Of a DNA stretch of 64,000 bases, positions 34,432 through 35,885 are shown one piece after another. Location: positions 298,125-362,124 of the forward strand of contig CAVPJG010000006.1 of assembly GCA_963705205.1 (NCBI GenBank), read 5' to 3'. This DNA is from an uncultured Thermoleophilia bacterium. Its GTDB lineage: Bacteria; Actinomycetota; Thermoleophilia; UBA2241. The notes beneath the pieces were generated by a model. It searched no databases. It was given only the letters and a program-made list of their open reading frames with translations, and had not been told where the DNA came from. Position numbers and translations under genes: made by a program. Each line of letters opens with the position of its first letter. Positions within the stretch are counted from its first letter, which is position 1.

Positions 34432-34686
34432 TTGAAACTCGAGATCCTTGGTTCCGGCTGCGCCAACTGCCAGAAGCTGATGGCGGTCACCGAGGCCGCC
34501 GTGCGCGACCTCGGCATCGACGACGCCGAACTCGTCAAGGTCGAGGACTTTCCCACGATCATGGCCTACGGGGTCATGTCGACGCCCGCCCTCGTCATCG
34601 ACGGGAAGGTCGTGCTGAGCGGCAAGGTACCTTCGCAGGCCGAAGTCGGCTCGCTGATCACCACGGCGCTGGCCACTCAGGGATGA
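34432..34686 (+). CDS. Thioredoxin-like redox-active disulfide protein (TM0996/MTH895-type)
   Basis: TTG start after GGAGCG. LKLEILGSGCANCQKL (CxxC) ... STPALVIDGKVV, about 84 aa. Confidence 0.75.
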   Translation: MKLEILGSGCANCQKLMAVTEAAVRDLGIDDAELVKVEDFPTIMAYGVMSTPALVIDGKVVLSGKVPSQAEVGSLITTALATQG

Positions 34687-35885
34687 CCGAGAACGCATGC
34701 TGCGGCGGTGCGTCGCCTGCGCCACCGGAGGGACACGCCGGCTGCAGCGAGCCGGCGGAGCCGGCGTGCTGCCGGACGCAGGCGCCAGAACCGCCTCAGA
34801 GCTCGTGCTGCGGAGCGCCGGGCGACGCGCCGGCGGACTACGCCTACGGCCCAGAGTCCTACGTGGTCGGCGCGGTGCAGACCCCCGCCGGCCTGGTCCC
34901 GCGCATCAGCGCCGAGCTCGGGCGCGCCGACCGCCTGGGGACCTGGCGGGTGCGGTGGGGGATCGGCCGCAGCGACTACCGCGTGCGCCCCGGTCTGTAC
35001 GCGCTCGGAGAGCCCGGGGCCGCCTCGCCGGTGCTCGTCACCGCCAACTACAAGCTCACGTTCGACGTCCTGCGCAGCTCCCTGGGCGAGTCCGGTGTCT
35101 GGCTGCTCGTCGTCGACACCCGCGGGATCAACGTCTGGTGCGCGGCCGGCAAGGGGACCTTCTCGGCCGAGGAGGTCGCGCGGATGGTGCGCGAGACGCG
35201 ACTGGACGAGGTCGTCGAGCACCGCAGGCTCGTGCTGCCGCAGCTGTCCGCCCCCGGCGTCGCCGCGCACCGGGTGAAGGAGGCCTGCGGTTTTCGCGTG
35301 ACCTTCGGACCCGTGCGAGCCGCGGACATCCACGCCTTCCTGGCCGCCGGCATGCAGGCCGACGCCACCATGCGCACCGTGACCTTCGGCCTCGGCGAGC
35401 GCGTGGCGCTGGCGCCGGCGGAGCTCCAGTACCTCTGGGACCGCCGGATGCTGCTCGCCTACGCCGGGGCGATCGCGGTCTCGAGCGTCGACGGCGACGG
35501 CGTCTCGCTCCGCCGCGGCCTGCGCCGCGGCCTGCCGATCGTCGGCGCCGCGGGGCTCGCCGTGCTCGCCGGCGGCGGCATCACGCCGGCGCTGCTGCCG
35601 TGGCTGCCCGGGCGCTCCTTCTCGCTCAAGGGGGCCACCGTCGGCGTCGCCGTAGCCGCCGGCACCGTGGTGGCGGCGGGCGGCAGGCTCTCTCCCGCCG
35701 CCAGGCTGGCGGTGCTCGCAGGCGTACCGGCTGCCGCCTCCTACGCCGCGATGAACTTCACCGGGTCCTCGCCGATCACCTCGCCCTCGGGGGTCGAACG
35801 AGAGATGCGACGCGCTCTGCCCCTCCAGGTGGCCGCAGCCGCCTTTGCCGTCGGCGGCTGGCTCGCGGCGAGATCGGGGAGGTGA
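34683..35885 (+). CDS. hgcA: HgcA-like corrinoid protein (CFeSP-type corrinoid domain + C-terminal membrane domain) with Cys-rich N-terminal extension
   Basis: ATGA overlap with the thioredoxin-like gene. Cap-helix signature GINVWCAAGKGTF (NVWCAAGK at 35130-35153). The C-terminal half is hydrophobic, with LLPWLPGRSFSLKG and NFTGSSPITSPSGVERE. The N-terminus has ACCGG, PACCRT and SSCCGAPG. Confidence 0.8.
   Translation: MTENACCGGASPAPPEGHAGCSEPAEPACCRTQAPEPPQSSCCGAPGDAPADYAYGPESYVVGAVQTPAGLVPRISAELGRADRLGTWRVRWGIGRSDYRVRPGLYALGEPGAASPVLVTANYKLTFDVLRSSLGESGVWLLVVDTRGINVWCAAGKGTFSAEEVARMVRETRLDEVVEHRRLVLPQLSAPGVAAHRVKEACGFRVTFGPVRAADIHAFLAAGMQADATMRTVTFGLGERVALAPAELQYLWDRRMLLAYAGAIAVSSVDGDGVSLRRGLRRGLPIVGAAGLAVLAGGGITPALLPWLPGRSFSLKGATVGVAVAAGTVVAAGGRLSPAARLAVLAGVPAAASYAAMNFTGSSPITSPSGVEREMRRALPLQVAAAAFAVGGWLAARSGR

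Follow-up and report, generated by a model that had tools for sequence, protein, structure and literature searches.

An hgcA-hgcB gene pair within a predicted arsenite-regulated ars operon of an uncultured Thermoleophilia bacterium

The genes hgcA and hgcB let anaerobic bacteria convert mercury to toxic methylmercury, and no other genetic determinant of methylmercury formation by microbes is known. Here we describe an hgcA-hgcB pair in a 64-kb stretch of DNA from an uncultured Thermoleophilia bacterium (64,000 nucleotides of contig CAVPJG010000006.1, assembly GCA_963705205.1; this whole stretch is referred to as the window). The pair very probably methylates Hg(II), and would do so from within an arsenite-regulated ars operon of a Thermoleophilia-type actinobacterium. 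Why cells retain hgcAB is a long-standing question, and this locus leaves the overall picture unchanged; it is a very clean case of hgcAB wired into an arsenic operon, in an arrangement that is conserved across an uncultured actinobacterial clade.

Identification of the hgcA-hgcB pair

The hgcA open reading frame (ORF) is intact from its ATG at 34683 to a TGA stop at 35883–35885, and its G+C content at third codon positions (GC3, 0.92) is similar to that of the adjacent genes. The start codon (34683–34685) overlaps the stop codon of the gene upstream (TGA, 34684–34686; junction sequence GGGATGACC), and the choice of this start is backed by an N-terminus, MTE(K/N)xCCGG, that is kept in the homologues P0001, P0006, P0028 and P0040. 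The 400-residue product scores 402.7 bits (E = 1.1e-120) on the NCBIfam HgcA equivalog model NF040863, for which the cutoff is 275, with residues 72–396 aligned to model positions 1–322 of 325. An earlier interpretation of this DNA made from its letters alone (the sequence-only reading) had proposed a genuine member of the HgcA family, and the HgcA-specific profile, together with an hgcB gene directly downstream, bears this out. The Pfam family PF03599 is matched with 63.9 bits by residues 97–219, covering just the last 123 of its 387 model positions. In a search of PDB sequences the sole relatives were large subunits of corrinoid iron-sulfur proteins (CFeSP; 2h9a, 4c1n and 4djd), aligned over residues 99–221 with E values of about 1e-13 and about 30% identity, and no experimental HgcA structure was found there. 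Identity as CFeSP, CdhE or the gamma subunit of acetyl-CoA decarbonylase-synthase was rejected, NF003195 giving 85 bits against a cutoff of 306 and being matched at positions 322–445 of 450 only. An HgcAB-like fusion was likewise rejected: NF043039 gives 191.4 bits against a cutoff of 285, and this from the corrinoid domain only, with the downstream ferredoxin scoring 52 bits on the same model and the hgcA stop codon separating the two ORFs.

The motif that had drawn attention to this gene is the HgcA cap-helix signature NVWCAAGK, and it lies where the sequence-only reading had placed it. It is contained in the string GINVWCAAGKGTF, which corresponds to HgcA residues 148–160 with the cysteine at residue 153, and the pattern N[VI]WCA[AG]GK occurs a single time in the six-frame translation of the whole window. 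Residues N150, V151, W152, C153, A155, G156 and K157 are invariant in an alignment of 65 clade sequences (alignment A1), so the motif cysteine is conserved in the closest homologues, and among related genome loci (taken from GTDB contigs with one genome per species) the cap motif was found at 79 of 80. The segment NVWCAAGKGT aligns with SVLTAWAAGK of CFeSP, a homology seen at the level of the sequence alignment only. By analogy with Cys93 of HgcA from strain ND132 (Pseudodesulfovibrio mercurii, also Desulfovibrio desulfuricans), Cys153 is the proposed lower axial ligand of the cobalt.

The hydrophobic C-terminal part, which had been suggested to be the HgcA membrane domain, holds up equally well. 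Its two motifs, LLPWLPGRSFSLKG (residues 304–317) and NFTGSSPITSPSGVERE (residues 358–374), are present at the expected places and are family-wide, since the pattern F[SAG]xKG is found at 71 of the 79 HgcA loci, in many phyla, and [FY][TS]Gx[ST]xx[TS]SxSG at 70 of them. An AlphaFold2 model of HgcA, computed without cofactor from the alignment of 65 clade sequences, has a mean predicted local distance difference test score (pLDDT) of 71.8 and contains five helices within residues 237–397 (237–267, 276–304, 311–335, 338–362 and 371–397). This prediction agrees with the Kyte-Doolittle profile, in which residues 282–310, 312–337, 339–360 and 378–396 form hydrophobic segments, and with the HgcA membrane domain described previously (PMC7305189). 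Residues 61–231 are modelled as a confident Rossmann-type domain, with pLDDT mostly 84–95 over residues 61–140. The best Foldseek match of the model is a deposited computational model of ND132 HgcAB (9a0b_A, E = 3e-22, 52% identity over 324 columns), followed by the CFeSP large subunits 2ycl, 2h9a and 4djd, each with a probability of 1.00.

The hgcB ORF had not been named in the sequence-only reading. It begins 8 nt past the hgcA stop codon if translated from the GTG at 35894, which has a GGAGG 12 nt upstream; translation could alternatively begin at the GTG at 35882, which shares nucleotides with the hgcA stop (GTGA). The product scores 113.6 bits on the HgcB_ferredoxin model NF040864 (cutoff 99). 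Numbered from GTG 35894, its cysteines are at positions 20/23/26/30, 50/53/56/60, 73, 89 and 91, the first two sets forming the [4Fe-4S] motifs CNGCGLCVAVCP (residues 20–31) and CLECGACALNC (residues 50–60). The cluster ligands and the essential Cys73 of ND132 HgcB have the same numbering (PMC7305189). HgcB-like ORFs are present at 76 loci, with a Cys73-type residue in 72 of the 76 and further tail cysteines in 71. By sequence, then, the gene at 34683–35885 is an HgcA orthologue with its partner hgcB in a complete and intact two-gene pair, and all of the features that define HgcAB at this level are present.

HgcA also carries an N-terminal extension rich in cysteine. Residues 1–71 lie outside the NCBIfam HgcA model, which begins at residue 72, and have no Pfam match; they include the Cys-Cys pairs 6–7, 29–30 and 42–43 as well as Cys21, and residues 1–46 are predicted to be disordered (pLDDT below 50). 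In alignment A1 every sequence has C42, the conservation of C7 and C43 is 90% or higher, and the tails of the clade proteins have one to about six SCCG-type repeats. Tails bearing at least one CC within the 60 residues ahead of the core occur at 50 of 79 HgcA loci in many phyla; those of the Desulfuromonadales type have CCPP repeats, and many of the Desulfobacterales type have a conserved CCG.PPGP. Across these proteins the 3,484 tail residues contain 79 CC dipeptides, and the 25,777 core residues contain 2. Tail lengths were counted from the earliest start codon that follows the upstream stop and are therefore possibly over-estimated at some loci; that the tail is translated is argued from the conserved, in-frame position of its motifs. 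The ND132 protein, used for all of the biochemistry, has its cap cysteine at residue 93 rather than 153 and its corrinoid domain from residue 15, and it thus lacks the tail. A search of the open-access literature returned no description of a Cys-rich HgcA N-terminus, and the tail is apparently undescribed so far, presumably overlooked because it is missing from the ND132 model protein though present at about two thirds of HgcA loci.

Flexible regions with vicinal or closely spaced cysteines, such as those of the ArsD metallochaperone and of the ArsM N-terminus, are binding sites for As(III) and further soft metal(loid)s. The HgcA tail resembles these regions in its low-complexity Cys motif and has no further sequence homology to them; in the ArsM encoded in the window, residues 31–41 resemble the SCCG repeats. 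We tentatively propose, as a possibility rather than an expectation, that the disordered tail is a substrate-capturing arm that binds soft metal(loid)s (Hg(II), As(III)) and passes them to the corrinoid site. Such a tail could bear on the route by which Hg(II) reaches the active site, since the protein from which the biochemistry derives is without it. An arsenic-specific adaptation was ruled out, as the tail shows no association with an ars neighbourhood among the loci (Fisher test, p = 0.23 when any ars or ArsR gene is counted and p = 1.0 with structural ars genes); a metal-binding arm, should the tail be one, would for this reason be a general feature of HgcA. Within the window CC dipeptides cluster in the ars island, with three in HgcA, three in a DUF2703 protein, two in ArsR2 and two in ArsM, and outside it there is one CC in each of only three other called genes of the 64 kb.

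The predicted ars operon carrying hgcAB and its relatives

The pair stands at the end of a run of five plus-strand genes, acr3-arsR1-arsE-hgcA-hgcB. The first encodes an arsenite efflux transporter and the second an ArsR/SmtB repressor, ArsR1, in which the sequence ERCVCEM, in front of the recognition helix, contains the canonical CVC site for arsenite. The third has a CANC motif at residues 10–13 and an AAGGAG 6 nt before its TTG start at 34432. It had been called a CxxC thioredoxin-like gene whose stop overlaps the hgcA start; the overlap and the CxxC motif are as reported, and the thioredoxin-like label is correct as far as it goes, but the gene is not a generic thioredoxin, belonging instead to the ArsE family, a recognised type of ars gene. 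Gionfriddo et al. (2022; bioRxiv 10.1101/2022.10.17.512643) describe ArsE (PF13192) as a protein of organoarsenical resistance whose gene accompanies that of ArsP. Stop and start codons overlap as ATGA at 34040–34043 (acr3/arsR1) and at 34683–34686 (arsE/hgcA), and the hgcA/hgcB junction (35882–35894) has either a GTGA overlap or an 8-nt gap depending on the hgcB start, so that two or three of the junctions overlap.

A scan for promoters and terminators found no promoter-like and no plus-strand terminator-like site inside 32904–36172, the scan being a simple one for the sigma-70 consensus, by which actinobacterial promoters are often missed. A candidate promoter/operator region precedes acr3, between it and the divergent arsP gene, and contains a 16-nt imperfect inverted repeat; it is put forward as a putative operator only, because no consensus sigma-70 site was found there. 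The five genes appear to be co-transcribed from an acr3 promoter, and expression of hgcAB is most likely derepressed by As(III) at the CVC site of ArsR1. This is suggested by the overlapping stop and start codons with no intervening promoter or terminator signal, and also by experiments in ND132, where an ArsR upstream of hgcAB controls their transcription and responds to arsenic and to S-adenosylhomocysteine (Gionfriddo et al. 2022; bioRxiv 10.1101/2022.10.17.512643).

A protein search with HgcA gave 7,975 matches, of which the best 120 are 65–98% identical, and the named ones among these 120 are annotated 'mercury methylation corrinoid protein HgcA [Thermoleophilia bacterium]' (NCBI). No record with the exact HgcA sequence is present in the assembly index. 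Among full-length GTDB representatives the nearest has about 70% identity, and the closest contig fragment (P0001, 2.6 kb) reaches 98%. The best seven GTDB loci are from metagenome-assembled genomes (MAGs) assigned to Thermoleophilia, Actinomycetota or 'uncultured Actinomycetes', at 66–70% identity; these are followed by an Actinomycetota MAG (L008) at 56% and then mainly by Desulfobacterota and other phyla at 41–57%, including a Coriobacteriia MAG (L023) at 57%.

Gene order around hgcAB is similar across the clade. At five loci (L001–L004 and L007) acr3 and arsR are directly upstream of hgcAB, with acr3 copies 78–85% identical to that of the window, and at four of these (L002–L004 and L007) there is also a copy of the divergent arsP fusion gene, 71–80% identical. 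Four further loci (L081–L084) have the order arsR-hgcA-hgcB with a divergent metallophosphoesterase and ACR3 in all four, and in L081 and L082 arsM directly follows hgcB; their gene calls include no thioredoxin-type gene next to hgcA. Altogether arsR and/or acr3 are directly upstream of hgcAB at nine of eleven clade loci (L001–L004, L007 and L081–L084). Among the related loci examined, arsE is directly upstream of hgcA only in the window, L002 and L003. The flanking genes for SepF, DUF456 and DUF2927 are the same in L081 as in the window, and the ars embedding has apparently been kept at one chromosomal site in the clade. Across the 79 hgcA loci, an ArsR or ars gene lies within 5 kb at 26, and structural ars genes do so at 12. 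The link between arsE and hgcAB recurs across phyla in an arrangement unlike that of the window, with arsE downstream of hgcB: hgcA-hgcB-arsE-arsP in a deltaproteobacterial MAG (L015, 8001–10700) and in the Coriobacteriia MAG (L023, 7672–10700), and hgcA-hgcB-arsE in a Bacteroidales MAG (L070, 1179–2800).

The sequence-only reading had pointed to both the lineage and the ars context, and neither is new. McDaniel et al. (2020; PMC7438021) found hgcA in four Thermoleophilia MAGs (proposed order UBA2241) recovered from lake hypolimnia and thawing permafrost, and showed acr3, arsC, arsM and arsR beside hgcAB, and Gionfriddo et al. (2022; bioRxiv 10.1101/2022.10.17.512643) described co-localisation of hgcAB and ars genes in other genomes. 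With these reports and the homologues already named at NCBI the novelty is reduced, and the locus is another member of a known hgcAB-in-ars context in which the lineage and the link to arsenic were published before.

Proposed function and alternatives

If the pair acts as its family does, the cytoplasmic domain of HgcA (residues 72–231) would bind a cobamide with the Cys153 thiolate as lower ligand, and the two [4Fe-4S] clusters of HgcB would feed low-potential electrons to generate Co(I). Co(I) would then take the methyl group of S-adenosylmethionine (SAM) to give CH3-Co(III), from which the methyl would pass to thiol-bound Hg(II). The published model assigns these thiols to Cys73 and to the flexible C-terminal cysteines of HgcB, which in the window protein are Cys89 and Cys91. 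The complex would be anchored by the five-helix membrane domain, which is needed for activity in the model organism. The use of SAM as methyl donor, the binding of cobalamin through a Co-S (Cys-on) bond and the methylation of Hg(II) have been shown for the ND132 protein only (PMC11588087).

Several points weigh against a methylating pair under arsenite control. In the AlphaFold2 model the cap segment (residues 150–156) is non-helical with pLDDT below 50, the model being an apo one from a shallow alignment (at least 65% identity). In HgcB the second ferredoxin motif is followed by VP (CVP) and not P (CP), and the tail has CDCG, a CxC, compared with CC in ND132. At two of the clade loci (L005 and L006) no ars genes were detected beside hgcAB, so that the ars linkage is not obligatory, and the simple sigma-70 scan gave no consensus site upstream of acr3. 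Co-transcription and derepression by As(III) are both read from the sequence, and mercury methylation by the uncultured Thermoleophilia clade is likewise predicted from it.

As to what HgcAB is selected for, the sequence-only reading held that the physiological substrate is open in this lineage and ars context. It is open, but this applies to the HgcAB family as a whole and is not specific to the locus; native roles proposed elsewhere include antimicrobial production (PMC10083202) and halomethane dehalogenation (bioRxiv 10.64898/2026.04.26.720869). The alternative that survives best, and one we consider unlikely, is that HgcAB has been selected here for arsenic. Arsenite would then induce a corrinoid-dependent reaction, a methylation or another transformation, that acts on As(III) or on a metalloid bound to thiols; ArsE would be its thiol reductant or a chaperone, ArsP would export the methylated product, and mercury methylation would be a side reaction. 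A related formulation, to which we give slightly less weight again, is that arsE-hgcA-hgcB is an arsenite-induced member of the ars regulon whose selected substrate is an arsenic species, either alone or jointly with the N-terminal tail acting as a capturing arm. The placement of hgcAB inside an ars transcription unit that opens with the genes for Acr3 and a CVC ArsR, the repetition of this arrangement at nine of the eleven clade loci, the hgcAB-arsE-arsP order in other phyla (L015, L023 and L070) and the ArsR or ars genes within 5 kb at about a third of hgcA loci are all consistent with a role in arsenic metabolism, as are the vicinal Cys pairs of the tail, which are of the type of the ArsD As(III) site. 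Moreover, deletion of hgcAB in ND132 increases sensitivity to As(V), and hgcAB are induced by arsenic in that strain (Gionfriddo et al. 2022; bioRxiv 10.1101/2022.10.17.512643). Against this, a SAM-dependent ArsM is encoded 0.6 kb away, so the need for a further arsenic methylase is not obvious, and HgcA does not depart from its family consensus at known functional residues. ND132 cultures reduce As(V) and possibly form thioarsenicals, but no methylated arsenic was reported and their sensitivity to As(III) is the same with and without hgcAB. The lack of association between the Cys tail and ars neighbours also argues against it.

It is improbable, though less so than the explanations that follow, that hgcAB are functional and their position among ars genes is without regulatory meaning, the pair being transcribed from a promoter of its own within arsR1 or arsE and not responding to arsenic. 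The limits of the sigma-70 scan leave room for such a promoter, published hgcAB transcript levels predict methylation poorly, and the two clade loci that lack ars neighbours show that hgcAB can stand apart. However, the 4-nt overlaps at acr3/arsR1 and arsE/hgcA leave no space for separate initiation signals, the five genes share one strand, the clade conserves an ArsR gene immediately before hgcA, and ArsR control has been demonstrated in ND132.

Super-reduced corrinoids are generally reactive with halomethanes. Reductive dehalogenation of a halomethane such as CCl4 by the Co(I) corrinoid could thus be the selected activity, with mercury methylation and the ars linkage incidental, but we regard this as quite improbable. 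A single 2026 preprint reports dechlorination of CCl4 by heterologous HgcAB and growth-linked dehalogenation by model methylators (bioRxiv 10.64898/2026.04.26.720869), but nothing in the window indicates halomethane metabolism, and the conserved embedding in ars genes would be left unexplained. Finally, there is next to no chance that the gene is not a true hgcA and encodes a corrinoid protein of the Wood-Ljungdahl type (CFeSP, CdhD or CdhE) or a non-methylating HgcAB-like paralogue: the modest identity of its corrinoid domain to CFeSP is outweighed by the profile scores given above, which effectively refute this, by the Thr/Ala of CFeSP at the position of Cys153 and its lack of a membrane domain, by the match to the last part of PF03599 only, by the separate hgcA and hgcB genes that leave the fused architecture absent, and by the lack of acs or cdh genes among the 56 window proteins scanned with Pfam or NCBIfam.

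A methylating HgcAB pair under ArsR1 control thus remains the favoured reading. Because it combines a canonical ArsR, overlapping codons, acr3, arsE, arsP and arsM nearby and an arrangement conserved across the clade, the locus is a good construct for testing the arsenic hypothesis, and it argues that in Thermoleophilia of peat, permafrost and lake hypolimnia the expression of hgcAB could be driven by arsenic in the environment.

Neighbouring genes and comparison with known systems

Features of the locus and of its surroundings are collected in Table 1.

Table 1. Positions of hgcAB, the domains of HgcA and the neighbouring genes and sites in the window
Feature	Position	Strand	Basis
hgcA, corrinoid protein of the mercury-methylation pair, 400 aa	34683–35885	+	NF040863, PF03599, homologues, Foldseek
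N-terminal Cys-rich tail of HgcA, residues 1–71	34683–34895	+	AlphaFold2 pLDDT, alignment A1, outside NF040863
Corrinoid-binding domain of HgcA, residues ~72–231	34896–35375	+	PF03599, CFeSP homology, AlphaFold2
Cap-helix signature NVWCAAGK of HgcA, residues 150–157	35130–35153	+	Pattern search, alignment A1, CFeSP alignment
Transmembrane domain of HgcA, five helices (predicted)	35391–35873	+	DSSP on AlphaFold2 model, Kyte-Doolittle; motifs FSLKG, NFTGSSPITSPSG
hgcB, dicluster ferredoxin partner, 92 aa from GTG 35894	35894–36172	+	NF040864, Cys pattern
Divergent intergenic region arsP/acr3, AT-rich patch, candidate promoter/operator	32774–32903	.	16-nt imperfect inverted repeat 32789–32804 / 32822–32837
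acr3, arsenite efflux transporter, first gene of the operon	32904–34043	+	TIGR00832, 457.8 bits (cutoff 282.8)
arsR1, ArsR/SmtB repressor, 122 aa from ATG 34040	34040–34408	+	NF033788, 80.8 bits (cutoff 55); PF01022
arsE-type thioredoxin-like gene, 84 aa from TTG 34432	34432–34686	+	TIGR00412, 99.4 bits (cutoff 62); PF13192, 94.6 bits
arsR2, second ArsR/SmtB regulator, CVC and two CC pairs	36225–36638	-	NF033788, 75.9 bits
Sigma-70-like arsM promoter, TTGACA-16-TAGAAT, 11/12 matches	36677–36704	+	Promoter scan
arsM, SAM-dependent arsenite methyltransferase	36746–37579	+	NF008823, 326.1 bits (cutoff 263)
Metallophosphoesterase (residues 1–210) fused to ArsP-type permease (357–648), 651 aa	30818–32773	-	PF03773 ArsP_1, 257.9 bits; PF12850, PF00149
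DUF2703 protein, CC at 14–15, 24–25 and 204–205	30137–30757	-	PF10865, 72.2 bits
Small dicluster ferredoxin, 76 aa	29893–30123	-	Fer4 families
Radical SAM/SPASM protein, last of the minus-strand group	28764–29882	-	PF04055, PF13186

The genes acr3, arsE, arsP and arsM all lie inside 6 kb. To the right of the pair, arsR2 is convergent to hgcB and divergent from arsM, and the sigma-70-like site ahead of arsM is the sole such site in 32600–36900, where shuffled sequences average 0.1. To the left, the divergent gene encodes a metallophosphoesterase fused to an ArsP-type permease. The same calcineurin-like metallophosphoesterase stands alone (255–266 aa) next to ACR3 in the related Thermoleophilia loci L081–L084, and the enzyme looks like a recurrent, unnamed component of ars islands. 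A group consisting of the DUF2703 protein, the small ferredoxin and the radical SAM/SPASM protein is downstream of arsP and recurs by hgcAB in related MAGs (L003 and L084). In L003 the DUF2703 protein is 85% and the small ferredoxin 78% identical to those of the window; ferredoxins of 87 aa adjoin ACR3 in L081 and L083, and a radical SAM/SPASM gene is near hgcAB in L084. The best NCBIfam match of the radical SAM/SPASM protein is TIGR04317, at 280 bits and under the cutoff of 380, and it resembles metalloenzyme maturases.

The island is flanked by genes for SepF, an NlpC/P60 protein and a formyltransferase on one side and by DUF456, sigma factor, DUF2927 and TerC genes on the other. An origin in a mobile element was rejected, as no integrase or transposase was found among the 56 window proteins in Pfam and NCBIfam scans, the flanks are housekeeping genes, and L081 has the same flanks; for these reasons the island was more likely inherited vertically at a fixed place in the chromosome. 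The G+C content of the window, 70%, is in keeping with its most likely source, a Thermoleophilia-type actinobacterium. A scan of the whole window with Rfam gave no family at the gathering score, and thus no cobalamin riboswitch, tRNA or other known RNA.

Elsewhere in the window, a corrinoid methyltransferase cluster at 59369–63840 encodes a homocysteine S-methyltransferase-domain protein, two small B12-binding proteins on opposite strands, a GntR regulator and a 453-aa URO-D/MtaA-like methyltransferase, and this cluster shows that methyl transfer in the organism makes use of cobamides. An 816-aa multiheme c-type cytochrome (16521–18971, minus strand) with cytochrome c7, c3 and MtrC-like domains is present in this high-G+C actinobacterial context, and a similar one is near hgcAB in L083 (1–994). 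An 832-aa flavin adenine dinucleotide (FAD) oxidoreductase fused to a folate-binding aminomethyltransferase, of the dimethylglycine/sarcosine dehydrogenase type (21662–24160, plus strand), points to one-carbon and methyl-group metabolism.

Compared with known systems, the window pair shares its corrinoid domain and ferredoxin module with the HgcAB-like fusion proteins (NF043039) and differs from them in having separate genes and a full membrane domain. To our knowledge, those fused HgcAB homologues that have been tested did not methylate mercury. With the CFeSP large subunit it has in common a homologous Rossmann-type corrinoid domain (residues 99–221) and a methyl shuttle through Co(I) and CH3-Co(III). 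CFeSP, however, is soluble and has an N-terminal [4Fe-4S] domain and a TIM barrel, both of which are missing from the window HgcA, where there is a five-helix membrane domain instead; CFeSP has no cysteine at the cap position, and HgcA, unlike CFeSP, uses SAM as methyl donor (PMC11588087).

The closest systems are the HgcA proteins of other Thermoleophilia (UBA2241) and Actinomycetota MAGs, which are alike in full-length identity (65–98%), in the N-terminal SCCG repeats and in the order arsR/acr3-hgcA-hgcB(-arsM). These loci differ among themselves in that the metallophosphoesterase is fused to ArsP in the window, L002–L004 and L007 and is a gene of its own in L081–L084. The experimentally studied ND132 system is similar to that of the window in its two genes, cap motif, five-helix domain, HgcB Cys positions and upstream ArsR-family gene, with 52% identity between the window HgcA and 9a0b_A. 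It differs in three respects: the tail of ND132 HgcB has CC where that of the window protein has CDCG, ND132 HgcA is without the approximately 60 extra N-terminal residues that make up the Cys-rich tail, and its regulator, ArsR2, is atypical, responds to S-adenosylhomocysteine and has no other ars genes near, whereas in the window a canonical CVC repressor is accompanied by acr3, arsE, arsP and arsM.

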